DNA of 64,000 nucleotides from a virus (taxonomy: Duplodnaviria > Caudoviricetes): IMG/VR virus record IMGVR_UViG_2708742752_000007, positions 1 to 64,000 of that record. The stretch is one strand, 5' to 3'. Both the position numbers and the translations under genes were made by a program. Below are positions 3,812-33,865 of the stretch, piece by piece. Below the pieces are notes generated by a model. The model ran no database searches and had not been told where the DNA came from. It saw only the letters and a list, made by a program, of their open reading frames with translations. The first letter of the stretch is position 1. The number at the start of each line of letters is the position of its first letter.

Positions 3812-3819
3812 CGGATGGA

Positions 3820-16761: not shown

Positions 16762-18420
16762 GTGTATTTAGAGGAGAAAGAGACACAGCGCATTCTGCCC
16801 TTCAACCCATTCCCGTACCAGCGCAAGATGCTGCGCTGGATGATGGAGGGCAGGAATGTCCTGGCACTCAAGTCGCGTAGGGTGGGCTGCTCGTGGATCA
16901 CGGCTGCCTACGCCGCCTGGCTGCTCAACTTCCGTGAGGGTATTAACGTCCTCTTCCTGAGCAAGAAAGAGGACGATGCCAAGAAACTATTACGCAAGGT
17001 AAAATTTATACTTAAAAACTTGGCACTGCATGACAATGAAGACCACCGATTGGCAACTCGATGCAGTTGGTTATGTGGCGAGATTGGCACAGATAACCAG
17101 CAATTATTTACCATCATCTACCGTGACGATCATGGGCGAGCTACGGCTGAGAGCGAAGCGGCTTCATTGTCCACGACTTCCGAGTCGGGACGTTCCGAGG
17201 GCGCTTCGCTTATCTTTTTGGACGAATTTGGCTTCGTCAAGCCCGACGACGAAAAGACCTGGACTGCCATCAAGCCTACCGTGGCTAGAGGTGGGCAATG
17301 GATCACCGTTTCGACTCCAAACGGAGTGGGCGGCGTTCACCACCGGCTATGCATGGAAGCCCAACGTCACGAGAACAAATCCTATGAGTACATCGAGGTT
17401 CACTGGTCCGAGGCAGGCATCACTCAAGCCCAGTACGAAGCCGCTATCGAGGGCATGGACGCCGCTTCTATCGCCCAGGAATGGGAGATGGAGTTCATCC
17501 AGAGCGGCAACCCGGTCTTCAACGCAACCGACCTGGCAGCCTGCTACAAGCCGCCCGAAGAGTATCCAGAAGTAGCCAAGATGCTGAAAGACTACCGCGA
17601 GAGAGAAAGATTCTATTATAGTGGGGCTGACACCTCCGAAGGTAAGGCCCACCGCAAGTCCACCCAGAGAGACTACCACTCGTGGTGCTCGCTCACCCGT
17701 TCAGGCATCCAGGCGTTTGGGAAAAACACCAAAGAGCCACTTAGCAAGTGGGCCGGACATACGGTTACTACCACCACCGGCAAACAGCTCAACGTGCCAG
17801 GTACGACCACCAACCTGCACGTCGAATATCCCGGCCTGCTCAGGGTAGAGGACAACGGCGCAGGGGCCACGGTAGTCAACCGCCATGTCGCCCCGCTGGA
17901 TGGGCAAAGCGAGTTGATCCCCTCTCATACCGATAAACTAAGCAAGTCGCGTTATATCCGCAACTTGATGCTGTCGGTCGAAGCCCACGACATAATCATC
18001 ACCGATTTGTTTACCTACCAGTGCATGCTGGTGTATCAATTGGGCAGCCTGCCGGGCACCTACGAAGCCCCCCTGGGATATTATGATGACCCGGTTATGT
18101 CGCTGGCTATGGCAAACGACCTGCGTTACGAATATGGCGGCATGGAGTTTACCTGGGCGGATGGGGTAGCTCCCCTGCGGCGTAGCGTGTCACCTGAAGA
18201 AGCCGAGGCGCTGGACTTGACCAGCCTCCCGGCTGCGCCCGAAGTCATGACCATGGACAACCTGCGCACAAGCGAATTTATGCCGGGACCGGGCCGGTTG
18301 CCCTCGCCCGCGACCGAACATATGTTGTTACCCGATCTGAGTCTGATTTTGCCCTTGGGGGCACCAGAGGAGAGCCACAACCATAAGCGGAGGGAACATG
18401 ACAAAAACATGCGCCCGTGA
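16762..18420 (+). CDS. terL: terminase large subunit (true start probably upstream, near 16677-16690)
   Basis: LKSRRVGCS Walker A, IFLDEFGF Walker B, STPNG, GADTSEG and DDPVMS nuclease motifs. Confidence 0.92.
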   Translation: MYLEEKETQRILPFNPFPYQRKMLRWMMEGRNVLALKSRRVGCSWITAAYAAWLLNFREGINVLFLSKKEDDAKKLLRKVKFILKNLALHDNEDHRLATRCSWLCGEIGTDNQQLFTIIYRDDHGRATAESEAASLSTTSESGRSEGASLIFLDEFGFVKPDDEKTWTAIKPTVARGGQWITVSTPNGVGGVHHRLCMEAQRHENKSYEYIEVHWSEAGITQAQYEAAIEGMDAASIAQEWEMEFIQSGNPVFNATDLAACYKPPEEYPEVAKMLKDYRERERFYYSGADTSEGKAHRKSTQRDYHSWCSLTRSGIQAFGKNTKEPLSKWAGHTVTTTTGKQLNVPGTTTNLHVEYPGLLRVEDNGAGATVVNRHVAPLDGQSELIPSHTDKLSKSRYIRNLMLSVEAHDIIITDLFTYQCMLVYQLGSLPGTYEAPLGYYDDPVMSLAMANDLRYEYGGMEFTWADGVAPLRRSVSPEEAEALDLTSLPAAPEVMTMDNLRTSEFMPGPGRLPSPATEHMLLPDLSLILPLGAPEESHNHKRREHDKNMRP

Positions 18421-21190
18421 GGGCTGTGGCAACCCTCTCAACAAGGGCAAATACTACTGCTCGCCATCCTGTTCGGCACAGGATCGTATACATAAACGCA
18501 ATGGCACCAGCCCTATTCCCGCCGATGTCAAACAGACACTTACCCAAGCCCTGGGCAGTCAGGACGCTTCCTTTGTATTGAAAGAGATGGAAAGCGTCAT
18601 GCTTCAGGAAGAGATCATCACCGCCCCGCCTATAGTGGTCAAGACCGAGGGCGACTTCATGTACACCTACTACATGGCCGGTGAAGATCGCCGCCCCAGC
18701 GATGCCCTGGAAGGGGAAATCATCCGCGAAATGCTCAAGAGCGGCATCGTGCTATTCGTGCTGGAGATGAAGCTTGCCAGCATGATGGGCGTCTTTCGTA
18801 ACGACCGTTCCTGGAAGGTAGTCTGCCCTGACAAGGAATTGGCTGGTGTAGCTGAGGCCAACCTGCGCCAGATCATGCCGCGTATGATGCTGGATGCACT
18901 CAGGTCCATGCTGACTTACGGGGCCTACTTCGGCGAGAAGTCGTTCGAGTACAAAAACCCCTACCAATTGGGTCTGAGCAAATCACGCGGCGCTTCCAAA
19001 GAGTACGCCGTGCCAAAGCTACCGGCTGCCTGCAACCCGGAGAGTATCACTTATATCAAGCGCACCACGGATGGTAGCTTCGACGGCTTCGTGCAAACGC
19101 CCAAGAACGTCTTCCGCGCACGCAACGAGATCGACGTAGAGCGTAAAGCAGCCCTGGTCATTCCATATCGCGGGCAATTCCGTAACCTGTGGGGCGAAAG
19201 CTATCTCAAGCCCATATACCCGATCTGGTTCTGGTACGAGATCGCCCTGCGCTCGTGGGTACGCTACATGGAGCGCATGGGCACGCCCGTGGCTGTGTGC
19301 TACGCCCCCTCGCGAGCCAAGGTACTCAAGCCGGGCACTACCACAGCCGTAGATGCCATGACCTGGGGGCTGGCGGTAGCTGGCAATATCGCCAAATCCA
19401 ACGCGGCTGTTTTGCCCAGCGACGTACACCCGGAGACCAAGATACCACTGTGGAAACTGGAATATCTGGTGGCCCAGGATCGGGGTGAGGTGTTCGGCAA
19501 GGCCATCGAGATGCTGTCGCAACTGATGATCCGCGCCGGTATGGCGGCTGACCGCGCCTTCACGCAGGGAGGCGAGACGGGCAGCTATGCCCTGGGCCAG
19601 ATCCACGATGCCGCCACGCAGATCCACAACGAGTTGATTCTGATCGAGGTGCTATGGGCACTCAACCAGTGGTTTATGCCAGACTATGTAGCATACAACC
19701 GGGGCGAGAATGGCCCACCTATGTGGCTGGAGACTGAGGGGCTCGACCCACGTGAAAAAGAGCGTCTATTCAAGATCATGTCCATCGCGGGCAACGCCGA
19801 GAACTTCAAAGAAGCCCTGTTCATGGTTAACTGGCGCGAGATGTACGAAGTCAACAACGTGCCCACCCTGACTGAGAAGGAAGTGGACGAGCTTAAGGAA
19901 AAGATGCTGCAAGAGGGTCTGACCCGCCAGGAAGAGACCATGAAGGTGCAGAAGAAGTTCGCACCCAAGCCAGGCGAGTTGCCCAAGCGTGAGGAGACGC
20001 CGCAGCAGACGGCTGCCAAGACTGAAGCGGCCACTAACGCCAACGGAGATGCTAAGAAGTTCGAGAACCTGGCCTACGCCATGCTAAATGGCAGTTACGT
20101 ACCGATCATATTGTCCGATCACGAGATGGCCCTGGTAGCTGGCATACGCGACCCAGAGGTGGTCAAGCTCTACAACCCTTTTCACGATAAGCTGGGCAAG
20201 TTCGCCGCACGGCGTGGGGCAGGCGGTTCGGTAATACCACAGGAAGGTGGTACGAGTCCAACTGCTGGACTCGGCGGCGGTGCTAGAGCCAAGCCGGGCT
20301 CATTCTTGAAAACGACGGGCTTGGCTTTGGGCATCGCTGGTCTGGGTGCGGTGGTGCTGGCAGGTCTCGCCAGTGCCACGCGAATCGAGTATGGCGAGCC
20401 TGGTGAGGTTAAAGATGAAGACAGCGCCGATCCGCCCGAATCTGCGCCAGTTTACGATAGCCTGGAGGATGCTACTCAGGCCGCTATCGGCGCATTAAAC
20501 CAGTTAGGGATTGATACAGAGGGCGACATATCGGTAAGCGTAGGGCAAGTGCCGGGTAACAATTTGGGCTACTATGACCCTGGCAAGAATGCTATGGTGA
20601 TCAGGGAAGATCTGGCACAGGACTTGATGAATGGATCACCAGCAGCTATGCATGCATTGGTTCACGAGTTGGCCCATTCAAACCAACAAACAGATGACAA
20701 TATGTTCTGGCAAGATCAAGAGTGGGCTATGGATCAGGGAACCGAGAACTTTGATAATTTCGTCCAACATCTGGAAGGCCAGAATGATGCTGTGACCATG
20801 GCAGCTCTGTCACACATGTACGGAAAGCCCATGGATTACGCCACGGTGGTTGCTATGCATGCTCAATACAGACGCGACAATGACCTTCCAGTAAACATAG
20901 TCAGACCGGGCTATCCAGATCAGGCTGCCTATTGGGCTGGCATTGCCAAGGCGAACCAGAGTCGCACGGGCGAGTCCCTCACTCAATTCAGTAGCCGGAG
21001 TCATGATACAGGGTTAAGCCCCGACAGCCAGTTCGATATACTGTGGGAACTATTTCCAGAACGCCTGGGCAGCTACCAAAAGAGTAAGACCTGGCCTTCA
21101 TATCAGCAAATCATGATATGGCTTGGCGAAGATTATGATGTTGATACCAACCAGGCATTTACAGATATGCTTGAGGAGGCACTGCAATGA
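18398..21190 (+). CDS. portal protein (DUF935/Mu gp29-like) with N-terminal Zn finger and C-terminal HExxH metalloprotease extension
   Basis: GESYLKPIY...W..YMERMGTP and GSYALGQIH portal motifs; NPFHDKLGKF; VHELAH. Confidence 0.85.
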   Translation: MTKTCAREGCGNPLNKGKYYCSPSCSAQDRIHKRNGTSPIPADVKQTLTQALGSQDASFVLKEMESVMLQEEIITAPPIVVKTEGDFMYTYYMAGEDRRPSDALEGEIIREMLKSGIVLFVLEMKLASMMGVFRNDRSWKVVCPDKELAGVAEANLRQIMPRMMLDALRSMLTYGAYFGEKSFEYKNPYQLGLSKSRGASKEYAVPKLPAACNPESITYIKRTTDGSFDGFVQTPKNVFRARNEIDVERKAALVIPYRGQFRNLWGESYLKPIYPIWFWYEIALRSWVRYMERMGTPVAVCYAPSRAKVLKPGTTTAVDAMTWGLAVAGNIAKSNAAVLPSDVHPETKIPLWKLEYLVAQDRGEVFGKAIEMLSQLMIRAGMAADRAFTQGGETGSYALGQIHDAATQIHNELILIEVLWALNQWFMPDYVAYNRGENGPPMWLETEGLDPREKERLFKIMSIAGNAENFKEALFMVNWREMYEVNNVPTLTEKEVDELKEKMLQEGLTRQEETMKVQKKFAPKPGELPKREETPQQTAAKTEAATNANGDAKKFENLAYAMLNGSYVPIILSDHEMALVAGIRDPEVVKLYNPFHDKLGKFAARRGAGGSVIPQEGGTSPTAGLGGGARAKPGSFLKTTGLALGIAGLGAVVLAGLASATRIEYGEPGEVKDEDSADPPESAPVYDSLEDATQAAIGALNQLGIDTEGDISVSVGQVPGNNLGYYDPGKNAMVIREDLAQDLMNGSPAAMHALVHELAHSNQQTDDNMFWQDQEWAMDQGTENFDNFVQHLEGQNDAVTMAALSHMYGKPMDYATVVAMHAQYRRDNDLPVNIVRPGYPDQAAYWAGIAKANQSRTGESLTQFSSRSHDTGLSPDSQFDILWELFPERLGSYQKSKTWPSYQQIMIWLGEDYDVDTNQAFTDMLEEALQ

Positions 21191-21414
21191 GAGCCATCTT
21201 CGAGGTTCTTAGAACATACGTTGAACGAAACGAAGCTGAAATACTCCTGATCCAGTTCGATCAAGGGCCAGACGAGGCAGACATGCTGGGTCTTGGCTTT
21301 GAGCGTGAGGGTGAATATTGGAAGATCACCCGCCAGCAAGCCGAGAAGCTTATCGCCGGACCTGACTATGACCAAGCCTGGAAACAGGAGGTGGAGCGAT
21401 GGAAGAATATGTAA
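21187..21414 (+). CDS. small acidic hypothetical protein (candidate partner/immunity)
   Basis: ATGA-coupled to portal. Confidence 0.6.
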   Translation: MRAIFEVLRTYVERNEAEILLIQFDQGPDEADMLGLGFEREGEYWKITRQQAEKLIAGPDYDQAWKQEVERWKNM

Positions 21415-21713
21415 CCGTGCGCGGCTGCCAAGTGCCTGCCCAGGAGATCCAAAACCTTAAGGATCAATTCGGGGCCGAGCTGGTGCCCGACAGCGAGTGG
21501 CGAATCATCCGGGCGCTGGACATGACCCTCAAGCACTACCGCGCCATGCACGGCAAAGACCCGGACCTGGTAAAGCTGAATCAAGATCCCTTCTATTGGT
21601 ACAAGCATTGCCCACTGAATGTGGTGGAGCCAGTTACGAAGGCTAAGGTGCCTGCCAAACACAAGCCTGCCTGGTTCAGAATAAAACGCATCTTTAAGGT
21701 GGTAAAGCCATGA
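21399..21713 (+). CDS. hypothetical protein
   Basis: GGAGGTGG SD. Confidence 0.65.
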   Translation: MEEYVTVRGCQVPAQEIQNLKDQFGAELVPDSEWRIIRALDMTLKHYRAMHGKDPDLVKLNQDPFYWYKHCPLNVVEPVTKAKVPAKHKPAWFRIKRIFKVVKP

Positions 21714-22330
21714 GGGTTGACCACGAAGATGGCTCGGGCAGCTTCTTACGGGCCGAGCTGCGCTGCGATCACTTCTTCGAGTGCAAGGTGGGCTACACCG
21801 ACCAATTGCTGCCCAGTCTGGACAAGGGCGCTTACTATAGTTTCGACCTGAATTATCCATGTTGGGCCTGGCATTATGGAACCGAGCGTGACACGTATTT
21901 AGTTGAGCTGGTCGTCGCTGTCGATGAGGCCGCACTGACACTATCTATCCCACCAAATCCCAATGCCAAACCTGTGTTACCCGGCATCAGTTGGCTGGTC
22001 TTCAGCGACGTTGACCTGCCAGAGCAACCTGACCCAACGCCTATGCCTGTGCCGCCCGACGAACCCGAACCTGATCCACAGCCACCTGCGCCTGTGCCCG
22101 CACCCGATCCAGATTGGGTGCCCAGGACGACTACGTTTGTCCCTGATGGGGTTATATCGCATCCCAAGGCCATCATCTGGGGTGGGAGTGATCTGGTTTG
22201 GGTGTTGCCCAACGATTTATATATGTCCTTCTTCGAGGAGACCTACATGCGCATGGCTGCCCGGCTGAGAGAGGCTATCGAGGCAGGCGAGTATACAGTA
22301 GAGGAAAGGAAAAATGATCTGGTCTTTTAG
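21710..22330 (+). CDS. hypothetical protein with Pro-rich linker
   Basis: coupled ORF; PEQPDPTPMPVPPDEPEPDP. Confidence 0.65.
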   Translation: MRVDHEDGSGSFLRAELRCDHFFECKVGYTDQLLPSLDKGAYYSFDLNYPCWAWHYGTERDTYLVELVVAVDEAALTLSIPPNPNAKPVLPGISWLVFSDVDLPEQPDPTPMPVPPDEPEPDPQPPAPVPAPDPDWVPRTTTFVPDGVISHPKAIIWGGSDLVWVLPNDLYMSFFEETYMRMAARLREAIEAGEYTVEERKNDLVF

Positions 22331-22892
22331 CGAGAGCTACCAGCAGCCGACCAGGCTGGATGATTTCAGTCTGGAAGATCGAAACACCATATTGGCAGCC
22401 ATCGACTATTATGGCAAGCAGTTCCAGTTTCCCATTAAGCTGGAGTTGGGGCCTGGGCAACACGGGCCTTCTATTACAGATCGAGTGAAGTTGGGCCTGA
22501 ACCCGCAGGCAGATCCAGGCTGTGAGATATTTTTTGACCTTAACTTCGGACTGCCATTGCCAGGCGAGAGCGTGAGTTATATCCACTCCAACCAGGTACT
22601 TGAGCACTTGAATAACATCATATTCCTATTCAACGAATTCTGGCGTGTGCTTATCCCAGGCGGCACTATGGAGCATTGTGTCCCGATCTACAATGGCCCG
22701 CACGCATGGAGCGATCCCACCCACCGCAGGGCATTTACGGAGCTATCTTTTCGTTATTTCTGTGTAGACGCCAACGGTGAGCCGTTCACAGCACATTTCA
22801 GCGACTATGGCATCACCAGCCGCTTTGTTTTGGAGAAACAGGATGTCAGGCCCGGACTGGACATAACCGCCTTTTTCAAGAAACCTGCTTAG
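22314..22892 (+). CDS. class I SAM methyltransferase-like protein (type 11)
   Basis: LELGPG, NQVLEHL, EFWRVLIPGG, AWSDPTH. Confidence 0.8.
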   Translation: MIWSFSESYQQPTRLDDFSLEDRNTILAAIDYYGKQFQFPIKLELGPGQHGPSITDRVKLGLNPQADPGCEIFFDLNFGLPLPGESVSYIHSNQVLEHLNNIIFLFNEFWRVLIPGGTMEHCVPIYNGPHAWSDPTHRRAFTELSFRYFCVDANGEPFTAHFSDYGITSRFVLEKQDVRPGLDITAFFKKPA

Positions 22893-22901
22893 GAGAGTCA
22901 T

Positions 22902-23102
22902 ATGAAACGAGAAGAACCAATAGACATAATCCAGCAATTCTCACAAATGGATACCATGCTGGAAAATATGGCCAAACTGGTTGCGAACTACTTTAATTCG
23001 ATAATGAAAGGTGGCGTTCCATACGATCTCGCAAGAGATTTGACTATTCGGTGGTATGAGCGCATGTTAGACAACATTTATAATCTGAAAAACAGGATCT
23101 AG
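22902..23102 (+). CDS. hypothetical protein
   Basis: AGGAG SD. Confidence 0.6.
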   Translation: MKREEPIDIIQQFSQMDTMLENMAKLVANYFNSIMKGGVPYDLARDLTIRWYERMLDNIYNLKNRI

Positions 23103-23111
23103 GAAAGTCAC

Positions 23112-23702
23112 ATGAACAATGTAACTGCTGAGAAGTTTCAGGAGATCCAATCAGGCGAGCTGGGATGGTGGACACATGCCAACTTCAACCCACAGATCGA
23201 GTGGAAATTTTATCTCGATGTTTTCGAGTCGCACCTGCGCCCATTCAAACGAGTAGTCGATATTGGCTGTGGGCCGGTGCCTATCTTCATGAACCCCAAG
23301 ATCGAGGCCAGCGAAGTGACAGCCGTCGATCCTTTATGGGAAGAGTACCTGAAGCTGGATAAGTATACCCAGTGGCATACCCGCCCGGTGGATCACCACT
23401 ATGCCGACGTGGACCAGGCACCTTCGCACCAATTCGACGGGGTGTTCTTTTTGAACGCCCTGGACCACGTGCGCTGCCCAAAAGAGACGCTGGATGGCGT
23501 GCAGCGCATCCTGACTTGTGACGGGCTGCTCTTTTTATTCGTCGATATTGACAAGTCGATTGATTATCTCCACCCTCACCGTCTCACTCAGTCGTGGCTC
23601 ATGATGGAGCTAGCTGGTATGGAGACGCTGGTAGTCAAGAATAATCAGAGCTGGAAGCACAAAAACCGGGTAGTGTATTACGTAGGACGCAAGATCACAT
23701 GA
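23112..23702 (+). CDS. class I SAM methyltransferase
   Basis: VVDIGCGP, AVDP, NALDHV. Confidence 0.82.
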   Translation: MNNVTAEKFQEIQSGELGWWTHANFNPQIEWKFYLDVFESHLRPFKRVVDIGCGPVPIFMNPKIEASEVTAVDPLWEEYLKLDKYTQWHTRPVDHHYADVDQAPSHQFDGVFFLNALDHVRCPKETLDGVQRILTCDGLLFLFVDIDKSIDYLHPHRLTQSWLMMELAGMETLVVKNNQSWKHKNRVVYYVGRKIT

Positions 23703-23866
23703 AGAGATTCAGAAAGACGTGGAAGCAACGCCGTAATTCAAAATGCGACTGCGACAGTGGCAGGAAATATAAGCACTGCTGCATGCCGCATAGAGAACGG
23801 GAACCACGCACTCAAACCCATAGGGTAAAGGAAGAACGGCGGAGGGCTAAAAGTGAAACCAGCTAA
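23699..23866 (+). CDS. SEC-C motif zinc-binding protein (55 aa)
   Basis: RNSKCDCDSGRKYKHCC; ATGA coupling; not in ORF track. Confidence 0.75.
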   Translation: MKRFRKTWKQRRNSKCDCDSGRKYKHCCMPHREREPRTQTHRVKEERRRAKSETS

Positions 23867-24923
23867 CGTTCTTATTATTATCATCGATTGTCTTCGTTAC
23901 GACAGAGTTAGTCCACAGTACATGCCCTGGCTATATGAATTTGGGCAACAGAATACTTGGTTCTCGAATTATTGGTCAACGTCCCACTGCACAGATCCAT
24001 CGATTACGTCTCTATTGAATGGTCGCTGGCCTGACGAACTCAAACTATATTCGATGATGTTCGAGTCCTATGACTATAGTATCCCACTTGGCGTCGAGAT
24101 GCTGCCACAGACCGCCAAAAAGCATGGCTACGAGACAGGCACACTCAGTAACCTGGGTCGCTGGTATACCTGGGGTGTAGACCGCTATGTAAACACTCGT
24201 GGCTGGCATGGCAGTGACATCTTCAAGTATGCAGACAGTATTATGTCAGTCATGAAACAGCCCTGGCTCATGATCGTGCACGACGACAGTTGCCACACAA
24301 ACTACCGGGGTGGCTCTTACGACCAGGCTTGTCGGGAGGTGGACAGCGACCTGGAGTGGCTGATCGGGCGGGTATTGAAGCACCAGCAGTGGACCGATAA
24401 CACTTTTGTCATCGTCACCGCTGATCATGGCGAGGGGCTGGGTGAACGCGGCATCGACCAGCACGGGAGAGGTCTGTGGCCCTTCCTGACGCACGTGCCA
24501 TTGATCATCCGCCAGCCCCGCGTTGCAAAAGCGTTATCCGTGTACGATGGGATTGTGCAACCAGTTAACATGCATGGTTTTATGGTCAACTGTATGTCGA
24601 TAGCACCTGAAGCATGGCCGCCCGGTATGAATGTGGATAAGAATGGCTATGCCCACATGGTTGGGCGCGATCCAAAGGTGTGGAACCGGGGCGTGACCAA
24701 TGGCAAGCATATGGTCATCAAGCGCCAGGAAGTCGGGGGGCCAACTACTATGTTCTACCTGGACATAGCCAGCGATCAATTGCTTGAGCCAGACGACCGC
24801 TACTACGAGATGTGGCACTATGCCCAAGAGCACGCCGCGCAGTTCGGCATCGACGCGGGCAACGATAGCCTGGACGACGAGATACTGGAGGCCAGGCTGA
24901 AAGGACTCGGTTATTTTGACTAG
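23853..24923 (+). CDS. sulfatase-like / alkaline-phosphatase-superfamily enzyme (Thr nucleophile)
   Basis: IIIDCLRYD, TDPSITSLLNG, TADHGE, HVPLII, C-terminal RLKGLGY. Confidence 0.82.
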   Translation: MKPANVLIIIIDCLRYDRVSPQYMPWLYEFGQQNTWFSNYWSTSHCTDPSITSLLNGRWPDELKLYSMMFESYDYSIPLGVEMLPQTAKKHGYETGTLSNLGRWYTWGVDRYVNTRGWHGSDIFKYADSIMSVMKQPWLMIVHDDSCHTNYRGGSYDQACREVDSDLEWLIGRVLKHQQWTDNTFVIVTADHGEGLGERGIDQHGRGLWPFLTHVPLIIRQPRVAKALSVYDGIVQPVNMHGFMVNCMSIAPEAWPPGMNVDKNGYAHMVGRDPKVWNRGVTNGKHMVIKRQEVGGPTTMFYLDIASDQLLEPDDRYYEMWHYAQEHAAQFGIDAGNDSLDDEILEARLKGLGYFD

Positions 24924-25508
24924 ATGTGGCAGGCTGAATTTCTGGCTGTCAAACGCTTCATCGACGACATGAGGATAGACCCAACCCAGGGCAAAGCTAT
25001 CGAGGTGGGTGGTGGACCTATCGTCGTGGTAGACGACAAGCCACAAGACAACCCGCTACTCAGCCTCAGCCCACAGGTAACTTTCTTGGACGAGGGCTTT
25101 ATCACTCGCTATGGCAAGCCGCCCCATATCCTGGCTGACTTCATGAGCTGGTCGGAGATCAGCCACCTGGCAGGCAGCTTCGACCTGGTTTACTCATTTC
25201 AGACTATGGAGCACGTCAATAACCCATTCCTGTTTGTGCGACATTTAGTAGCCATAACCAAGCCAGGTGGAGCGATCTTCCTGACTACCGTCTTCTCCTT
25301 CGCCTACCACCCCAGTCCATCCGATTACTGGCGCTTCAGCCCGCAGGGGTTGCAGGAGTTATTCAAGCAAGCGGGCGACAACATGTTATTATGGGCTGGC
25401 TTTGGGCCAAACCAGGGCGGCGTGATCGCCGTAGCGCAGCGAACACCAGCTACATACTGGGCCTATCCCAACAAGCTCCGGTTCGAGGAGGTCTTGGGCA
25501 AGCTATGA
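24924..25508 (+). CDS. class I SAM methyltransferase
   Basis: IEVGGG, FDLVYSFQTMEHV, KPGG, HPSPSDYWRF. Confidence 0.82.
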   Translation: MWQAEFLAVKRFIDDMRIDPTQGKAIEVGGGPIVVVDDKPQDNPLLSLSPQVTFLDEGFITRYGKPPHILADFMSWSEISHLAGSFDLVYSFQTMEHVNNPFLFVRHLVAITKPGGAIFLTTVFSFAYHPSPSDYWRFSPQGLQELFKQAGDNMLLWAGFGPNQGGVIAVAQRTPATYWAYPNKLRFEEVLGKL

Positions 25509-26098
25509 TCGACAAGAATTATGTCGCGTCTATGATGACCAAAGAGGCACTGTACATGGGGGGGCACGGGGCCGAGGAGGACTACCTAGGCTTGGGCATG
25601 CTGTACTATGCCATCACCTATGTTCTGAAAGCGGAGTTGTGCGTTTGCCTTGGCTCTGGGGGTGGTTTCGTGCCCAGGTGCATGCGCCAGGCCCAACGCG
25701 ATTTGGGGATAGGCAGAACTATTTTAGTGGATGTGGGCAATGGCGCTTGGGGCAGGACCACAGTCCACGATGTAAATAGCTGGTTTAGACTCAATTTCCC
25801 TGACGTGGAAGTCTGGAAGATGTTGACTGCTGAAGCTGCGCTCATGATCAAACATGCTGACTATATCCACACCGATGCTGATCACAGCTTTGAGGGTGTA
25901 AAAACGGACTTCATGGCCTATAGCCAAATCCTGGAACCAGATGGCATCATCACTTTGCACGATACTCATATCCAGGGCGTGCGGAGTTTTGTAGACGAGC
26001 TGAGTACCCATAGTGAGTGGCAGGTATTAGAATTACCTATGTGGCAGGGGCTTGCCATAGTCATGAGAGCCGATGGACTGGAAATATCTACAAAGTGA
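25505..26098 (+). CDS. methyltransferase (Methyltransf_24-like)
   Basis: CLGSGGG, IHTDADHSFEGVKTDF, ITLHDT. Confidence 0.8.
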   Translation: MIDKNYVASMMTKEALYMGGHGAEEDYLGLGMLYYAITYVLKAELCVCLGSGGGFVPRCMRQAQRDLGIGRTILVDVGNGAWGRTTVHDVNSWFRLNFPDVEVWKMLTAEAALMIKHADYIHTDADHSFEGVKTDFMAYSQILEPDGIITLHDTHIQGVRSFVDELSTHSEWQVLELPMWQGLAIVMRADGLEISTK

Positions 26099-26591
26099 GC
26101 CATTTCAATTACGCTACGTACTGGCTGCATACTTAGTGCGGTATTGCATGGATGTCATCGAGATCGGGGGCTGTGAAATACCTATCCACGTCTTTATGGA
26201 TTTGCGAAACCATGGCTCCATAACAGTGGTCGATCCGCGTATGAAAACAGGTTTTACCATTGACAACAAAAGGCAAATCGCCAGTGTTGTGCATATAAAC
26301 AAACCCATTCAGGAATGTCACTTCCCATACTCGGAGTTCGGGTTGGTTATATTAGGCATGCACATCCAGGGCGACTTGGAGCCAGTCTTTGACCTGGTTA
26401 AGCGATCCAAAGTAACCGTGATCGATTTCTCACTCGACTTTAAGCCCAGTGTTGACCAATTTAATCAGATGCTTCAGGCCACGCAACGACCGATCCGTAT
26501 GCAATTCAAATTGGATCTGACTGGCAATGACTTCGGAGACCTGACAGATAGCTGGCCCGCCAGACCCATCAGGCAGATGTACGTATTATGA
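26073..26591 (+). CDS. methyltransferase-like protein
   Basis: VIEIGG, VVDP Rossmann-like motifs; cluster context. Confidence 0.55.
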   Translation: MDWKYLQSEPFQLRYVLAAYLVRYCMDVIEIGGCEIPIHVFMDLRNHGSITVVDPRMKTGFTIDNKRQIASVVHINKPIQECHFPYSEFGLVILGMHIQGDLEPVFDLVKRSKVTVIDFSLDFKPSVDQFNQMLQATQRPIRMQFKLDLTGNDFGDLTDSWPARPIRQMYVL

Positions 26592-27145
26592 GACCTAGCC
26601 AACACCCCGATTGGAATAGCATATTCGGCTGGTGCGTAAAATTCGAGGCTGACTATCTGTACGAAATTGCTCGCAGTGTGACCGGCAATATCGTAGAGAT
26701 CGGCACTTATCAGGGCCGATCCATGGTTGCTATTGGCCTGGGCTGTCTCGAATCGGGTGCTCATCTGTACACCGTGGATCATTACCTGGGCAGCCCGGAG
26801 CACAGGACACCGCCTGCCAAAGAAGTCGTGGTTCAAAACCAGTTCAAATTTGGCCTCATGCGACACGTAACGGTGTTAGAAGGCGATAGCCAGGTGGTTG
26901 TGCCTACTATCGAGGCCAGTTTTGACATGGCCTATATCGACGGCACACATTCATATAGAGCTGTGTTCGACGACTTTCTGGTATGCTGGAAGAAACTGAC
27001 CAGCCATGCCAACATTCTGTTCCACGATGCCTACAAGGGTGGTTGGACAGAAGTTGAGGATGCGGTTAAGCAGATCGCCATGCGCTGGCCTATGGAACAA
27101 GTGAACGTAGCGGGGTCTATCGTTCACTTCAGAAAGATGACGTAA
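26588..27145 (+). CDS. methyltransferase (Methyltransf_24-like)
   Basis: IVEIGTYQGRS, YIDGTHSY, LFHD. Confidence 0.85.
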   Translation: MRPSQHPDWNSIFGWCVKFEADYLYEIARSVTGNIVEIGTYQGRSMVAIGLGCLESGAHLYTVDHYLGSPEHRTPPAKEVVVQNQFKFGLMRHVTVLEGDSQVVVPTIEASFDMAYIDGTHSYRAVFDDFLVCWKKLTSHANILFHDAYKGGWTEVEDAVKQIAMRWPMEQVNVAGSIVHFRKMT

Positions 27146-27155
27146 GGAGAGCCAT

Positions 27156-27485
27156 ATGGAATTGCTATTCGGGCCGGAACATTCAGATGAAAACAGGTAT
27201 TTTGTGCAGGAAGAAATGTGCAAAGCCCTGGCGCATCAGATGTTCTATGTCCAGGATGGATACAGCAACGAATTACCAGTGCCACACTATCATGTGATGA
27301 GGGCATATAAGCATCTGGTGGCCCTGAATAGGCTCAAGATAGTCATGTTCGATCATGATATTGGTAAAGACGCAGGCGCGCCTCTTAACAACGACTTATA
27401 CTGTCTGAAAGGTGAGGTTGTTTACGAGCTACTCGTTTTGCGTAAGAATGTCGATGAATTGATCGACAAGCTGAGAGGAGACTGA
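27156..27485 (+). CDS. hypothetical protein
   Basis: AAGGAG SD. Confidence 0.65.
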   Translation: MELLFGPEHSDENRYFVQEEMCKALAHQMFYVQDGYSNELPVPHYHVMRAYKHLVALNRLKIVMFDHDIGKDAGAPLNNDLYCLKGEVVYELLVLRKNVDELIDKLRGD

Positions 27486-27487
27486 CC

Positions 27488-27832
27488 GTGAGAAAGCTGA
27501 CATTGTTGTTGACCGTGTTTCTATTGACGAGTTGTGTGGTGCCCATCGTCACCCCGGAAGGCTATGGCTTAGCATCGCAGCCCACGCCTATCCCGACTTT
27601 GACGGCGACACCTGAGCCGACTAGTACGCCTGCACCTGTGGTAGACTCAGAAGGTGAATATTATCGGGGTATCTACGATTTATGTCGCTGGCTCATCCAG
27701 CAGACAGGCCACTATGTCGATTGCATGGCCTTTGTAGAACGATCTAATACCAGCGGTTGGTACGAGCAACCATCCAAGGATTGGCAGTGGCCTCTGCCCG
27801 CGCCAACAGTGGCACCAGGTACGTCCCTGTAA
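27488..27832 (+). CDS. predicted lipoprotein with Pro/Thr-rich linker
   Basis: MRK + hydrophobic + LTSC lipobox; PTPIPTLTATPEPTSTPAP. Confidence 0.75.
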   Translation: MRKLTLLLTVFLLTSCVVPIVTPEGYGLASQPTPIPTLTATPEPTSTPAPVVDSEGEYYRGIYDLCRWLIQQTGHYVDCMAFVERSNTSGWYEQPSKDWQWPLPAPTVAPGTSL

Positions 27833-28230
27833 TGCTGCTAACTCTGTACCTTTTATTCAGGCTAGTCATCGGCGGCGTGGTGGATACGCCTATCCAGCCA
27901 TGCCAGTGTGTCGTGGTCGAATACCAGGGCGCGACCGCTCTCAAGTGCGCCGTACCTGACCAGGTGGCCTGCTATCACGAGTGGCGACCAGGCAGCTTGC
28001 TGGTAAATGGGCATAACCCCGGCGTGTTCAGCCGCCTGGATGAAGTCGAAGTCGGGGATGCTATGGTCGTGACCATAGACGGCGTGACGACCACCTACTA
28101 CGTGACGACCAAAGAGGTGGTCAGGCGCGATGATCACCAGCGTTACACCGAGCTGGCTAATGTGCCAGGTGTGCTAATCGTCACCTGTTATGGTGAGCAC
28201 CATAGGCTTTTGGTTAAGGGGGAAATATGA
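27832..28230 (+). CDS. sortase-family transpeptidase
   Basis: GH(N)...FSRLDEVEVGD...YYV...LIVTC...RLLVKG gives a His/Cys/Arg triad; TAATG coupling to the lipoprotein. Confidence 0.8.
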   Translation: MLLTLYLLFRLVIGGVVDTPIQPCQCVVVEYQGATALKCAVPDQVACYHEWRPGSLLVNGHNPGVFSRLDEVEVGDAMVVTIDGVTTTYYVTTKEVVRRDDHQRYTELANVPGVLIVTCYGEHHRLLVKGEI

Positions 28231-29180
28231 AGCTGGCTCATGTAAGTCTTTTCAAGCGGCACCATGGGAATGAGTACCACGCGGGAGGTGTCGAAAAGTT
28301 TGCCTTCTTTTTGAATATGGCCTTCCCGGAGATGAAGTGTTACTCTATCCAGGACTTGCCCATACCCATCCAACCCGGTACACCCGACTACAAGATCGCT
28401 GAGATCCTCAATAACTGGCTTCTGGGCGAGGGGCTGGTAGATGAGAACACCACCGTTATCGGCGATGGTTTTTGGACACTGGGTCTGGAGGGCAAGGTAG
28501 GCAGGTTGATCTCTGTAATTCATGGTGCCTATTTCGGCACTGCATTGGAATATGAAAAGTACCCCAACCCTGAAGAGACGCACGTGGGCGAGTGGGCCTT
28601 GATCCAGGAGGAAGTCTGGAAAGATCCACGGGTCGAGGTTGTGTCGGTCAGCAACCGTTCAGCTTTGGAACTTATGACTGTGTGCGGTATTCCGTCGCAT
28701 GTTATATCTCATGGGCTGCCCCTGGACATCTATAAGCCAGATGGCAAGCCTAAGAGTCGCCTGGTCTTGCACACCTCTGTGAGCTTCAGGAAGGGCCGAG
28801 ATATGATCGAGAAGATCAAAGCCTTCGGCAAGTTCGACATTCAACAACTCGGCTTCGCGCGAAGCGGAGACATGGCAGAGGAAGTAAGACTCTGGAATCG
28901 GGGTGGCATCTTCCTGAACCCAACTAGATTTGAAGGGAACCATTATTCGATACTGGAAGCTCTGGCCTGTGGATTAGTGCCAGTGGCTTACTTGACAGGC
29001 GTCACCTATGACTTTCCCTGCCACGTGGCCGAGACCACAGATGACTTCCACGAACACCGCTTCGTGATGATGCTTGAGAATGCCATGGAGTATTACTCGA
29101 ACTATTTCCCGCGTGAGTGGGCCTGTGAGAACCTGGACTTCGACATATGGGCAGCCAAGTGGAGGGCTTATCTGAAATGA
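28227..29180 (+). CDS. GT4-like (GT-B) glycosyltransferase
   Basis: GGVEKF, RKG, PTRFEGNHYSILEALACGLVPV. Confidence 0.85.
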   Translation: MKLAHVSLFKRHHGNEYHAGGVEKFAFFLNMAFPEMKCYSIQDLPIPIQPGTPDYKIAEILNNWLLGEGLVDENTTVIGDGFWTLGLEGKVGRLISVIHGAYFGTALEYEKYPNPEETHVGEWALIQEEVWKDPRVEVVSVSNRSALELMTVCGIPSHVISHGLPLDIYKPDGKPKSRLVLHTSVSFRKGRDMIEKIKAFGKFDIQQLGFARSGDMAEEVRLWNRGGIFLNPTRFEGNHYSILEALACGLVPVAYLTGVTYDFPCHVAETTDDFHEHRFVMMLENAMEYYSNYFPREWACENLDFDIWAAKWRAYLK

Positions 29181-29428
29181 AAGAGCCACTTAAGCCATTG
29201 AGGGCTAACCAGCTAATTGAGACGTTAGCATGCTCAAGAACTAAAGACAACATGGGACACTTTCTCAATTATGAGTTATACATCTCAGATGGGATACAAC
29301 TATTTCCCATGAACAAACTTTACTTCGATATTGATAGGAAGATACTGATTTTCGTACCAGAGCATGTCAAAATTGACCTGGAAAAGTTTTACGACAGACT
29401 TGAGGTAAAGGATGATGCACAAAATTGA
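29177..29428 (+). CDS. hypothetical protein
   Basis: ATGA-coupled. Confidence 0.55.
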   Translation: MKEPLKPLRANQLIETLACSRTKDNMGHFLNYELYISDGIQLFPMNKLYFDIDRKILIFVPEHVKIDLEKFYDRLEVKDDAQN

Positions 29429-29687
29429 GTTTAAGTCAGAAAAGCTGGCGCGTTATGGGATCGTCGTGGCTGGGGACATCCAGGAGCTAGTCAAAATGAT
29501 GAACGAGATAGATGATGGTTGGTATCCACTTGGTGGCCCATTTCAAAGAATAAATGACTTTGGCAAATTACCTCTTGTATGCCAGGCTGTGGTGCGTGAG
29601 CCTAAACATTCGCTATGGAAGCTAACTGTAAATGGTGTAGAATTCGTACAAAAGGATAGTACAACCGATGCAGCCACTAGTAGTTGA
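29412..29687 (+). CDS. DUF1737-like hypothetical protein
   Basis: DDGWYPLGGP...CQAVV. Confidence 0.5.
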   Translation: MMHKIEFKSEKLARYGIVVAGDIQELVKMMNEIDDGWYPLGGPFQRINDFGKLPLVCQAVVREPKHSLWKLTVNGVEFVQKDSTTDAATSS

Positions 29688-32600
29688 TATTCCAACCAAG
29701 AACCGCCCGCGTGAACTGGGTCGCTGTCTGGCAGCCTTGCTGGCACAGACCTACCAGAAATTCGATCTTCTAATCGTTAATGACAATACTACCTTGCCAG
29801 TAGATTTCGACGAGGTTACGGCTGAGTGGCTGAAGCGCCACAAGGATCGCCGCCAGGTGTGGATCGAGAAAGGCACAGGCATGAGTCAGGTATACGCCCA
29901 TAACCTGGCTTTGTGGCAGCGTCCCTGGTGTGAGTACGAGTTCATCCTACGCATGGACGACGACATTCTGCTTAACTCGCGGGCTATCGAGATCATGCTG
30001 AACGCCATTCGATCCAACGTAGACATTGCCGCAGTATCAGGTCTATGGTTTGAATCAGAGACTAACGAAAACTGGTTCTCAGATCGTGATGTGCCAACCG
30101 CCGAGGAGTGGCAAAATAGCCTGGAGCTACATGGCAAAGCGGTGAATGGCATAGTCAGCAATTGGCACCAACGCTTATACCACGATTATCGCCCCAACGG
30201 CCAGGGTGAAATCATCGGTGCACCCATGGCGGTCCAGCATCTCTATTCAGCCTGTCTATATCGCGCCGCAGATATGCGTCGGGCAGGTGGCTGGCCTGAA
30301 ATCTATAGTCAGGGCATTCATCACGGCGAAGAAAGTGATGGCACATTCAGATTGGGGGCGACTAGTAAGAGATTGTGGGTCTTGCCTCAAGTCACCGGTC
30401 AACACTTACGCGCCTCTGGTGGCATCCGCAGTGCTGGTTTGGAATTGGAACACAGGACACGCCTGATCGACGATCCACTGCGCAACGAGCGCCTGCGGGC
30501 TATGCCGGGTGTATACGACCGTCCCATCAAAGTTGGTCTGTGGGGCCAGCATAGTATCTTCACGGGTGGTGGCCCGCGCATGTTCTTCGAGTTGTTGGCA
30601 GCCTTGCAGAGTGATCCAAACCTCGAAGTCTATCCAGTGGGCGATCACATGCCTTGCCACGACGTAGAGCGTGTGTTCGGCATTCACGTCGAGGATTGCA
30701 ACGCGCTGCCAGAAGAGTTGGACGTATTGATCCAACTGGGCGATGATCTGGACTGGTTCGGCAACGAGGCGATCTATATACCACCTGCCAAGTCCAAGAC
30801 GCTGTTTATCTACTACCCTTTCGGAAATAGAGCGCCGGAATTGGACGAGTTCACCCACATTGTCACCTTAAGCCAGTTCGTGGTAGACGAGATCGCTCGA
30901 CTGTGGCGGCGCAAGGCTCAATATATCTATCCGGTGGCTCACAGTATTCCACCTCTGAAGAAGCACAATTGGATACTGGTGCCCGGTCGTGTCGATCAAT
31001 GGAAGGGCACACTTTGGCTCATGGAAGCCTTCGCCGAGATGGACCTGAAGGGCTGGCAACTATACGTGGTAGGGGCTACCGAGGGCTCCATCCAAAAAGA
31101 CTACATCCAGCAGGTCAATAATTTTGCCAAAACGCACGAGAATGTACACCTCGATTTCGACGTGAGCCAGGCCAAGCTAGAAGAATATTATGGCAAGTCC
31201 AAGATCATGTGGGCAGCCAAGGGCATGCTGGCGGACGAGCACCCAGAGTTGAGCCGTGAGGCCGAGCACTATGGGCTGACACCCCTGGAGGCTATGAGTG
31301 CCGAGTGCGTACCACTGGTGTATGACTTAGGAGGGCATAGAGAGACTACAGAGGAGATTTTACGTTGGAAAAGCAAGGAAGATCTATTTCAAAAAACACA
31401 CGACTTAATTGATACAAGGTTTGTCTTTTATGACATATCCAGCTTCTTCGACAGGGAGCTGTTCAAAGAGCAATGGCTGCGCGTGGTGTACGAGTGCAAT
31501 GCCAAAACTTCCAGGCTGGAGGCAGTCAGGCTGGAAGTCACCGAGAACAGGCGACCCATCATCTTCGTCGTCACAGACAGCCCGCGTAAGCGCACGGGCT
31601 TTTCCACAGTAGCCCAACAGGTCGTGCCTGGCTTTGTCGAGCAAGGTTGGGACGTGCGCTGGTATGCTATCCTGGATGATAAGGAACCCATGCCAGGCGA
31701 GTTCGACTTTACCTTCATTCCCATGGCCGAGAGCGACATGCAGGGAGACAAGAGGTTGCTCAGGAAGATCATCCAACACGAGCCGGACGTGATCTGGGCA
31801 CTATACGACGCGGGCAACCTGTATAAGTACCTGGTCTTCAGCGAGTTCGGGGCTCAGACACATAAGTCAGATGGATCACTCCGGCCATGCGTGGCCTACT
31901 TCCCGGTCGAGGGTCTGCCGCTCCCATCTTATTACGGTGGCATGGTGCAGCATGTGCTGCGCTCAGGCGGGCAGGCTATTACCTACACCGAAGGTAGCGC
32001 CCAGGTTGTTATGGATCAATTTGAGGGCTTAAAGGTGGATTGGGCATGGCACGGTCTGGACCATGCTTGCTTCGAGCCTTATCCAACTGCCGACCGTAAG
32101 CACTTACGCCAATTGGTGGGGTTGGACAATTATTTTATCGTCGGCACTTTCGGCATCAACAAACGCACCAAGCAATTCGATACGCTGATCTATGCTGCCT
32201 GGTTCATCAAAGAGTGGGGGGAGGACAAGGATGTGCGGTTTTATTGCCACACTGAACCTAACGATCCTATCCTGCAAGGCTATCCCCTGAACGAAATGAG
32301 CAAGATCTACGGTGTAGAACATATGTTCTTATGGAAGCCGGATAGCTACTCACAGCGGGGTGGCAAGTATACTGGCGTCGAGTTCAGCAACAACAGCATG
32401 GATGAAGCCAAACGGCTAACCATGCCACCTACTGCCGAGGGGCGGGGCTACCTGCTGGGCCACTACGACATCATAGCTCGCTACAACTTACTGGATCTAT
32501 ATGCCGATGTTTCATCGGTGGAAGGCTGGGGACTTTGCGTCGGCGAGGCTTTGCGCTGTGGTGTGCCTGCCATCTCGGTAGACGATGGATCTGTACGCAG

Positions 32601-32862
32601 TGAGATCTATGGCGATGCGGCGCTCATGCTCAAGCCTACTTACGATTGGAGCACCTGGCACATCGGAGCCCGCCTAGCTCTGGTCCATCCAGAGGCAGTT
32701 GCCCGCGCTATTCTGGAGATGCGCGATAACCACGAATTGAGAAAAGAGTATGCCGAGCGGGGACGGGCAGCTACCGCTAAATATGTATGGCAGCCTACCC
32801 GCGATAAGATGGTAGCAGCCGTCAGGCAAGCATTGAGTCCAACACTTGGACTCGCCAAGTAG
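29668..32862 (+). CDS. triple-domain glycosyltransferase (GT2 + GT4-like + GT4-like)
   Basis: IPTKNRP...LRMDDD (GT-A); AEHYGLTPLEAM and EGWGLCVGEALRCGVP (two GT-B). Confidence 0.87.
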   Translation: MQPLVVDIPTKNRPRELGRCLAALLAQTYQKFDLLIVNDNTTLPVDFDEVTAEWLKRHKDRRQVWIEKGTGMSQVYAHNLALWQRPWCEYEFILRMDDDILLNSRAIEIMLNAIRSNVDIAAVSGLWFESETNENWFSDRDVPTAEEWQNSLELHGKAVNGIVSNWHQRLYHDYRPNGQGEIIGAPMAVQHLYSACLYRAADMRRAGGWPEIYSQGIHHGEESDGTFRLGATSKRLWVLPQVTGQHLRASGGIRSAGLELEHRTRLIDDPLRNERLRAMPGVYDRPIKVGLWGQHSIFTGGGPRMFFELLAALQSDPNLEVYPVGDHMPCHDVERVFGIHVEDCNALPEELDVLIQLGDDLDWFGNEAIYIPPAKSKTLFIYYPFGNRAPELDEFTHIVTLSQFVVDEIARLWRRKAQYIYPVAHSIPPLKKHNWILVPGRVDQWKGTLWLMEAFAEMDLKGWQLYVVGATEGSIQKDYIQQVNNFAKTHENVHLDFDVSQAKLEEYYGKSKIMWAAKGMLADEHPELSREAEHYGLTPLEAMSAECVPLVYDLGGHRETTEEILRWKSKEDLFQKTHDLIDTRFVFYDISSFFDRELFKEQWLRVVYECNAKTSRLEAVRLEVTENRRPIIFVVTDSPRKRTGFSTVAQQVVPGFVEQGWDVRWYAILDDKEPMPGEFDFTFIPMAESDMQGDKRLLRKIIQHEPDVIWALYDAGNLYKYLVFSEFGAQTHKSDGSLRPCVAYFPVEGLPLPSYYGGMVQHVLRSGGQAITYTEGSAQVVMDQFEGLKVDWAWHGLDHACFEPYPTADRKHLRQLVGLDNYFIVGTFGINKRTKQFDTLIYAAWFIKEWGEDKDVRFYCHTEPNDPILQGYPLNEMSKIYGVEHMFLWKPDSYSQRGGKYTGVEFSNNSMDEAKRLTMPPTAEGRGYLLGHYDIIARYNLLDLYADVSSVEGWGLCVGEALRCGVPAISVDDGSVRSEIYGDAALMLKPTYDWSTWHIGARLALVHPEAVARAILEMRDNHELRKEYAERGRAATAKYVWQPTRDKMVAAVRQALSPTLGLAK

Positions 32863-32871: not shown

Positions 32872-33174
32872 ATGATAATTGATAGGCCAAGACAGGATAT
32901 GGAGCTGGACTGGGATCACCTCACACTCCTATATGCCATTGATCCACTCACAGGTGGTATGACTACAGCCTACACGATTTATGGCAAACATCGCTTTACG
33001 TTCGATGTGGTCGTAACCATTCCTAAACATGGTATAAGATCTGTGTGGATGCACCCTTACTCAGATATGAAGATACATGCTATTCCGCCAAAAGGCGACA
33101 AGATGGCATATGCCAGACAATTAGGTGGCTTCTTATGTCGCGTAGTTTATGTTGAGGAGGGTAAGAATGGCTAG
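32872..33174 (+). CDS. hypothetical protein
   Basis: 100-aa ORF in operon. Confidence 0.55.
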   Translation: MIIDRPRQDMELDWDHLTLLYAIDPLTGGMTTAYTIYGKHRFTFDVVVTIPKHGIRSVWMHPYSDMKIHAIPPKGDKMAYARQLGGFLCRVVYVEEGKNG

Positions 33175-33822: not shown

Positions 33823-33865
33823 GTTGTCACCCGCGACGAGCTATCAGTTTGTAGGGAGGTGTAAG

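Follow-up and report, generated by a model that had tools for sequence, protein, structure and literature searches.

Polyvalent proteins, the many-domain polypeptides of portal-terminase phages and conjugative elements, commonly contain zincin-like metallopeptidase domains, for which roles as processors of the chain or as effectors were proposed, and the main text of the same survey describes portal and MuF proteins fused to effector domains (Iyer, Burroughs, Anand, de Souza and Aravind 2017, PMC5512222). In the MuF polymorphic toxins of temperate phages a head carrier is followed by a variable C-terminal module and by a short open reading frame (ORF) downstream (main text of Jamet et al. 2017, PMC5576092). 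A further case is gp47 of phage phi24B, a polyvalent protein of the virion with a metallopeptidase domain, which is not visible in the reconstruction and for which packaging and a role as an ejection protein were proposed (bioRxiv 10.64898/2026.04.10.717836, in the part of the preprint considered here). Here we report on a 64,000-nt stretch of Caudoviricetes DNA (IMG/VR record IMGVR_UViG_2708742752_000007; hereafter the window), which makes up the first 64 kb of the 94,133-bp contig C63 within a 3.86-Mb assembly, and in which the carrier is the portal itself. A 930-aa protein encoded at 18398..21190 (P0001) joins a Mu-type portal to a short NPxHDxxGxF motif, termed here the junction motif, a hydrophobic helix and a C-terminal domain predicted to have a zincin fold. 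All the window features given below lie on the plus strand. What sets this locus apart is the portal as carrier, the uncharacterised zincin family and the junction motif; the cargo, as we read it, works like known head cargo of the polyvalent or MuF type.

The first-pass annotation of this DNA, made from the letters alone, had proposed a portal fused to a cargo module, and the fusion proved to be real, with one frame, a Portal_Mu match of 64.2 bits and a zincin-fold C-terminus. The frame is free of stops over its whole length; its ATG lies within the end of the gene for the large terminase subunit (TerL), and its stop overlaps the ATG of the following 75-aa ORF (ATGA). No stop or frameshift was seen between the domains: contigs from four public runs over 19700-21500 carried no insertion, deletion, stop or joint where they covered this interval, a cover that is patchy, leaves parts of it out and in its best run may come from the source sample. 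The protein begins with a four-cysteine (Cys4) finger and the Mu-type portal; a charged linker leads on to LYNPFHDKLGKF, after which a Gly-rich spacer and a Gly-zipper hydrophobic helix precede the C-terminal domain. Every element listed in the earlier reading, from the N-terminal CxxxxC...CxxxC finger through the linker, YNPFHDKLGKF, the Gly spacer and the hydrophobic stretch to GYYDP, VHELAH and LEGQ, could be located. The finger (18410..18472, residues 5-25) reads C5-x4-C10-x10-C21-x3-C25 (CSxxC) in the translation; it starts 11 of the 21 proteins longer than 850 aa, the window protein counted, and also P0037 and P0038, and it matched no Pfam family at E <= 1. The portal core spans residues 236-466 (19103..19795; Pfam Portal_Mu PF06074, 64.2 bits against a cut-off of 23.9, E 1.7e-17), and a PHROG 113 portal match covers residues 138-441 (E 9.8e-16). 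The nearest cultured relatives of this portal are the portal proteins of Gordonia phages, at 22-26% identity. The gene lies in a head module, with TerL just before it and a decoration protein and the major capsid protein downstream. The charged linker that leads from the portal to the junction motif (residues 481-590; 19838..20167) was modelled with low confidence; residues 481-592 contain 20 D+E and 15 K+R. As in the MuF toxins, the gene is located in the packaging module near portal and terminase genes (PMC5576092, main text). Unlike them, P0001 gave no Phage_Mu_F match (Pfam), the scanned ORFs of the window showed no MuF domain either (Pfam/PHROG), the cargo is a predicted peptidase with a hydrophobic helix, and the main text on the MuF toxins mentions no conserved motif, linker or cleavage.

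The C-terminal domain (residues 679-930; 20432..21187) is assigned as a gluzincin-like metallopeptidase domain from its AlphaFold2 model, its fold matches and its conserved catalytic set. The HELAH sequence, preceded by GYYDP, occupies residues 756-760 (nt 20663-20677, with V755 of VHELAH at nt 20660), and 32 residues separate HExxH from the Glu of LEGQND, in which EGQND corresponds to residues 793-797 (nt 20774-20788). In an alignment of 12 sequences H756, E757, H760, Q763 and E793-G-Q-N-D797 were invariant (12/12), as were a Tyr, a His and an F-P beyond them; when 26 sequences were compared, HExxH was at least 90% conserved, and so were most of the other invariant residues. The model of a 361-aa piece (residues 570-930), which was built on the alignment of the relatives, has a predicted local confidence score (pLDDT) of ~85-98 over residues 679-930, and its elements follow the order of the gluzincin core, namely a helix, three strands, the HExxH helix and a long helix that carries the Glu. 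H756-E757-x-x-H760 falls on helix 179-191 of the piece, and E793..D797, the ExxxD that would contribute the third ligand, on helix 213-239. The best structural match by VIA-align was leukotriene A4 hydrolase (LTA4H; 5fwq_A, Z 9.4, rmsd 4.2, 171 aligned residues), and other rows were M1 aminopeptidases (Z 9.1 to 8.1), the M30 peptidase lugdulysin (7.8), thermolysin (6.8) and minigluzincins (abylysin, 6.8); most of the 50 rows were zinc peptidases or their folds. The HExxH region is therefore predicted to have a protease fold, as the earlier reading had assumed, and the fold and catalytic set fit an apparently active gluzincin peptidase.

Like the gluzincins (M1 LTA4H and aminopeptidase N, M4 thermolysin, minigluzincins), the domain has HExxH and a Glu in ExxxD on the next helix, and it aligns with them at Z 9.4 to 6.8; unlike them, it shares with them a sequence identity of 7-18%, lacks the GxMEN motif and has no significant match to a solved chain. 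GxMEN upstream of HExxH defines the M1 aminopeptidase/LTA4H family, and because this exopeptidase motif was not present in residues 679-756, the domain is not a member of M1; Pfam gave no M1 match either. In sequence searches of the PDB the best match of the single protein was POT1 (E 0.083) and that of the family profile selecase (E 0.22), neither of them significant, and NCBIfam gave one match only, at 16.7 bits against a cut-off of 200. To judge by these profiles, the zincin belongs to no curated family above threshold, and the family is uncharacterised. The domain is strongly acidic (38 D+E against 12 K+R). A role as a peptidoglycan hydrolase was considered and rejected, as no signature of the LAS, M23 or M15 type was present and the fold matches were gluzincins. 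With the polyvalent proteins the domain shares a metallopeptidase core of a helix, three strands and two helices (PMC5512222, main text), and by its domains P0001 falls among them, with portal and zincin in one frame and with relatives that have up to five motif-delimited modules. The differences are that here the carrier is the portal itself, the cargo is single and the zincin lies outside the curated families, and that neither the junction motif nor the hydrophobic helix that follows it appears in the main text of PMC5512222; its supplements may differ. The gp47 protein of phi24B differs in being a separate 2811-aa protein with LPD domains rather than a portal fusion, in the part of the preprint considered.

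An exhaustive HMMER search with residues 570-930 as the query among 1.84 billion representative proteins yielded 35 relatives at E <= 0.001, 21 at E <= 1e-10 and 11 at E <= 1e-30, and Portal_Mu was present in 20 of the 35. The motif, the hydrophobic stretch, HExxH and ExxxD were conserved among these relatives. One of them, P0003 (922 aa), was found on 24 contigs, the longest of 94 kb, and an 88.8-kb metagenome contig (L003) is syntenic with the window, with a terS-like gene, TerL, a 908-aa portal fusion, two ORFs of 86 and 98 aa and a glycosyltransferase. On the evidence of these sequences, the fusion is a recurrent architecture across independent metagenomes. The modules seen in the relatives are this zincin, a second zincin type (HExxHxR), DnaJ and ParB; the question raised by the first-pass annotation, whether homologous portals have variable C-termini, could hence be answered in the affirmative, with zincins, DnaJ, ParB and a type IB topoisomerase (TopoIB) as cargo. 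A word-indexed homology search with residues 560-930 returned only the protein itself, and a scan of viral contigs for the pattern HExxHSxQE gave seven matches, none of them a relative.

The site at which the modules change was revealed by pairs of proteins. The 90%-identity cluster of the 435-aa P0010 includes a 996-aa portal fusion (P0037), and the cluster of P0012 likewise includes P0038. P0010 and P0037 are identical at 394/397 positions after the motif and at 8/26 before it, P0012 and P0038 at 395/400 after and 11/26 before, so that in both pairs 99% identity after the motif contrasts with unrelated sequence before it; a third pair, P0002 and P0003, has 295/349 identical residues after the motif and 12/48 before it. 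A frameshift cannot explain this break in identity, because the residues upstream differ in the same frame. As far as these pairs allow us to tell, the modules are exchanged exactly at the junction motif.

In P0001 the junction motif, LYNPFHDKLGKFAARRGAGG, spans residues 591-610 (20168..20227); its YNPFHDKLGKF core starts at Y592 (nt 20171). In the three protein pairs the motif is a sharp break in identity. Neither the window nor the rest of the 3.86-Mb assembly holds a second copy, and a regular-expression count gave one to five copies per protein, with one in P0001 and two to five in the longer relatives (P0024, 3; P0028, 3; P0029, 4; P0031, 5; P0034, 3). The copies are flanked by h-x-L-F before and by A..GG after, and the consensus is hxLF-NPxHDxxGRF-A..GG. 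Among 60 distinct instances, conservation extends to positions outside the search pattern: L stands at -2 in 45 instances, F at -1 in 39 of them, A at +10 in 43 and G at +14 in 46. The search patterns themselves prescribed N, P, H, D, G and F, and for this reason the invariance of these six residues is partly circular. Zincins, DnaJ, ParB and TopoIB are all preceded by the motif as cargo modules. From this collection of sequences NPxHDxxGxF is a recurrent module-junction motif rather than a one-off, a point that the earlier reading had missed. The motif was not found in print, where supplements of related papers may show it in alignments; a preprint that deals with the stringent response and portal proteins is not about fusions.

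The motif is followed in P0001 by a Gly-rich, net-basic spacer (20228..20317; 10 G, 5 K+R and 1 D+E over residues 603-640; pLDDT < 50) and by a glycine-zipper-like hydrophobic helix, GLALGIAGLGAVVLAGLASAT (residues 641-661; 20318..20380; Kyte-Doolittle 19-residue mean 2.12), for which the family consensus is KTTGxVLGLxGLGxVG. The flanks of the helix are basic before (5 K+R, 1 D+E) and acidic after (11 D+E, 2 K+R). A hydrophobic 19-mer (Kyte-Doolittle >= 1.6) was present within 120 aa after 27 of 46 motif copies, compared with 99 of 682 background windows from the same proteins. The helix may insert into a membrane or pack in a bundle. Assembly anchored in a membrane through this C-terminal helix was considered and rejected, given that the portal C-terminus faces the capsid interior.

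The motif also occurs beyond the relatives of this zincin. A back-translated LFNPxHDxxGRF pattern detected 16 stretches on 11 IMG/VR contigs, with less than one chance match expected from the information content of the pattern, and the ORFs concerned were Portal_Mu fusions, a Phage_portal_3 + TopoIB protein with two motifs, a MuF protein, an ORF with an S78 prohead protease, and series of small neighbouring ORFs, each with the motif at its start. In one of these contigs (L017) the Phage_portal_3 portal at 1-2388 combines two copies of the junction motif with a type IB topoisomerase domain at its C-terminus, and the product of the next gene, at 2773-4185, is a MuF protein in which the motif lies at residue 79. 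Another contig (L012) has four adjacent ORFs, each with the motif and one with three copies; in one ORF an S78 prohead serine protease domain (residues 75-216) is joined to the motif at residue 418. In the thaumarchaeal provirus Pro-Nvie1 (Nitrososphaera, FR725450.1; L020:2783-4799) the annotated portal terminates with LQEFNPYHDERGRFASATG; FNPYHDERGRF lies 43 residues before the stop, and the portal gene overlaps by 29 nt a gene annotated as Rel_Spo-like, so that an archaeal virus may here have a portal-cargo pair that is split or frameshifted. Applied to 185,579 species-representative genomes, the same scan gave nine stretches, with about two chance matches expected by the same kind of estimate, and only two of them (L022 and L029) looked like true motif contexts; the junction motif seems to live mostly in uncultured viruses.

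We consider it rather probable that P0001 is a polyvalent portal, i.e., a Mu-family portal with a C-terminal cargo cassette that would be freed at the motif and ejected at infection. The portal would be a dodecameric ring at one capsid vertex with its C-terminus inside, as in solved portals, in which the C-termini point into the capsid. The cassette would consist of the junction motif, the flexible Gly-rich spacer, the glycine-zipper helix and the apparently active gluzincin peptidase, and twelve copies of the cargo would be held inside the head at the portal crown. The junction motif serves as the boundary for the exchange of cargo between phages and would, most likely, also be the cut site that frees it; if it is cut, we infer that the candidate agents are the tethered zincin, an unrecognised protease or self-cleavage of the N|P bond. 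The freed helix and protease would then exit through the portal and the tail channel at infection, as is thought for ejection and polyvalent proteins, and the helix would engage the host membrane so that the peptidase may act on a host or phage substrate. Capsid location, cleavage, ejection, membrane insertion and the peptidase substrate are the parts of this scheme that we infer.

A number of observations weigh against this scheme. The motif, the spacer and the helix were modelled at low confidence (pLDDT 31-66), and therefore the model lends no structural support to cleavage or to membrane insertion. With Foldseek the best E-value against PDB and BFVD was 0.045, with none at or below 0.001, the weak rows being mostly zinc peptidases and polyvalent proteins, in the same direction as VIA-align. 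The putative metallopeptidase family DUF6782 of Pfam (PF20573) reached 21.4 bits, below its cut-off of 27, and over residues 712-768 only, and three relatives likewise fell below the cut-off. No cultured phage in a collection of 50,697 records carries the module at E <= 0.1. In P0030 and P0031 the junction motif lies 8-14 residues from the called N-terminus, where a pure cleavage site makes little sense; these copies suggest a role beyond cleavage, perhaps in targeting, and the capsid-targeting sequences of T4 serve for both. Finally, the motif-bearing P0026 and P0035 have no true HExxH, and P0031 has only a chance HEPNH match, so that the motif is independent of a zincin in the same chain.

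The stop of the portal gene is coupled to a 75-aa acidic ORF (21187..21414), with an ATGA overlap and a GAGGAGG Shine-Dalgarno sequence just upstream. The first-pass annotation had pointed out this ORF (pI 4.57, 16 D+E against 10 K+R) as a candidate inhibitor gene; the coupled ORF is indeed present, and it is conserved directly downstream in all four loci with downstream DNA (the window, L001, L002 and L003), but the inhibitor role is not supported as stated, given that the core of the small protein recurs within head proteins before motifs. This core, LGLGFEREGEYWKITRQQAEKLIAG, matches residues 282-315 of P0042, a 665-aa head protein (L013), with 15/37 identical residues (BLASTP E 3e-5 in a single comparison), and the match ends 20 residues before a junction motif. 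A profile of the four small ORFs gave weaker matches to P0026 (12.4 bits, 17 residues before the motif), to P0032 (3.2 bits, 14 residues before it) and, at the N-termini, to P0002 (7.7 bits) and P0021 (0.0 bits). Homology to the P0002 and P0021 N-termini was dropped: the matches are collinear, and hhalign gave E 0.019 and 0.034 with probabilities of 2.5% and 1.5%, which are not significant. No homology was detected between the 75-aa ORF and the stretch before the motif in P0001 itself, and a word-indexed homology search with the ORF returned only itself. Its model (pLDDT 77) had no informative fold match, the best Z being 4.5; the rows from ESM Atlas and VIA-align were GNAT-fragment-like only (TM <= 0.59, Z <= 4.5), which we read as a common small alpha/beta arrangement. 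Since the core recurs in-chain just upstream of motifs, a structural or adaptor element fits better than a dedicated immunity protein, and from these comparisons we read the 75-aa ORF as a free-standing relative of a 'pre-junction' element and not as a proven inhibitor.

Several other explanations of the fusion have to be weighed against the ejected cargo. The zincin could be the head's own processing enzyme, tethered to the portal in place of a prohead serine protease, in which case it would cut the junction motif in cis or in trans, and perhaps scaffold or capsid proteins, during maturation. Such a role agrees with the proposal, in the main text of Iyer 2017 (PMC5512222), that processing is a main role of the metallopeptidase domains of polyvalent proteins. 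It also agrees with the contig itself, on which no prohead protease family was recognised by PHROG and Pfam scans of ORFs of at least 150 aa: within the whole assembly the S78 match is on another contig (C28), the only Mu-like_Pro match (C16) has an E-value of 0.068, and the 424-aa ORF at the position usual for a protease or scaffold (33821..35095) has no match in Pfam, PHROG or PDB sequences. However, failed profile matches do not prove that a protease is absent, a motif-bearing portal without a true HExxH exists (P0035), L012 pairs the motif with a standard S78 protease, and we know of no metallopeptidase that acts as a head maturation protease; on balance a processing role appears unlikely. 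The requirement for any protease would vanish if the motif cleaved itself, with the Asn of N-P-x-H cyclising and the N|P bond breaking as at the NPTH of FlhB, YscU and EscU. N, P and the H at +3 are fixed in every collected copy, the motif occurs in proteins that have no zincin, and in the model residues 27 and 33 of the 361-aa piece form a short beta-bridge on the two sides of the motif, as in a hairpin, although the local pLDDT is only ~65 and the invariance is in part a product of the search patterns. Cleavage at NPTH depends on the surrounding fold of the FlhB C-terminus, and no FlhB-type domain was detected in P0001 (Pfam, E <= 1); only N-P-x-H is shared, a resemblance just four residues long. 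Self-cleavage of this kind, for which the precedent is the auto-cleavage of YscU and FlhB at a conserved NPTH (PMC3189125, as far as the source goes here), we regard as quite unlikely.

The layout of the locus, in which a variable C-terminal module stands behind a conserved carrier and a junction and is followed by a small coupled ORF that accompanies the module in 4/4 loci, is also that of a toxin-immunity pair like those of the polymorphic MuF toxins; the zincin would then be a toxin delivered to competitor or host cells, from which the 75-aa ORF would protect the producer. We give this a low probability, as the core of the small ORF is found in-chain upstream of motifs (P0042, P0026, P0002, P0032), unlike immunity proteins, its fold has no informative match (best Z 4.5), and the other cargo (DnaJ, ParB, TopoIB) resembles takeover functions more than toxins. 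It is highly improbable, in our view, that the extension is structural and stays on the portal, with twelve zipper helices and acidic domains forming an internal core or plug, for which the P22 portal barrel and the T7 core offer comparisons, and organising or retaining DNA at the crown around an HExxH that is not enzymatic. The twelve-fold tethering and the strong acidity of the domain would suit a plug, and glycine-zipper sequences favour helix-helix packing; but in relatives that share 25-41% identity the catalytic residues of HExxH and ExxxD do not vary, which speaks for activity, the module recurs at 99% identity behind a 38-residue leader without a portal, and the cargo is interchangeable with functionally unrelated enzymes.

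More broadly, we raise as a tentative possibility that tailed viruses of bacteria and archaea have in hxLF-NPxHDxxGRF-A..GG a general 'cargo junction' of their heads, which would be both a recombination point and a release signal and would allow effectors to be loaded on, and freed from, portal, MuF and protease-scaffold proteins; release would take place by N|P self-cleavage or by a shared head protease, and the 75-aa family would be the pre-junction domain in free-standing form. In its behaviour the motif is like the pre-toxin junction motifs of polymorphic toxins, such as the VENN of CdiA, short conserved peptides at which variable C-terminal modules are swapped by recombination. Unlike VENN, the motif described here has a different sequence, is delivered by a phage head and is repeated several times per chain. 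With FlhB, YscU and EscU it has in common an N-P-x-H tetrad at a presumed separation boundary (PMC3189125, in the part considered). In contrast to those proteins, no FlhB-type domain accompanies it, and it extends to HDxxGRF. To our knowledge this extension is not shared by NPTH proteins. Proteins that are carried in the capsid and enter with the DNA are the first weapons of infection and are hard to recognise from sequence, so that a short, searchable junction motif would give a direct way to find cargo in metagenomes. The motif spans bacterial phages and an archaeal provirus, on portal, MuF and protease-scaffold proteins, and it would supply a defined site at which the release of cargo can be tested; a portal with twelve copies of a putative membrane-seeking protease would offer a simple system for the exit of a folded enzyme from the capsid.

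The structural block around the fusion is siphovirus-like, as in long-tailed phages. Its gene order starts with a small-terminase-like ORF, TerL (16762..18420; PHROG 2, E 4.3e-32; Pfam Terminase_6N, E 3.7e-5), which lies directly upstream and overlaps the portal start by 23 nt, and the 930-aa ORF. There follow two small conserved ORFs, the 75-aa ORF and a conserved 104-aa ORF (21399..21713), for which phmmer against the ORFs of the other loci gave E 1e-28 with L003 and E 9.8e-13 with L013, and Pfam no family at E <= 10. Methyltransferases, a sulfatase-like ORF, glycosyltransferases and a sortase-domain ORF come next, and further downstream the 424-aa ORF (33821..35095) is succeeded by a lambda gpD-like head decoration protein (35099..35488; PF02924, E 4.7e-7), the major capsid protein and a 2584-aa tape-measure protein. 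In the region from the portal block to the capsid genes (22314..32862) there are five or six ORFs that resemble SAM methyltransferases, one ORF of the sulfatase family (PF00884, E 4.4e-22) and a double glycosyltransferase of 1064 aa. The sortase domain (PF04203, E 2.5e-12) is in a 157-aa ORF (27757..28230) surrounded by genes for methyltransferases and glycosyltransferases, in this same interval from the phage's portal to its capsid genes. The sole Peptidase_S78 match of the whole assembly, at G000:C28:18651-18869, suggests that the bin includes another prophage or phage contig, unrelated to this one. A 131-aa ORF with a double zinc ribbon (CxxC x4; 33149..33544) has a similar 137-aa counterpart at L003:9996-10409.

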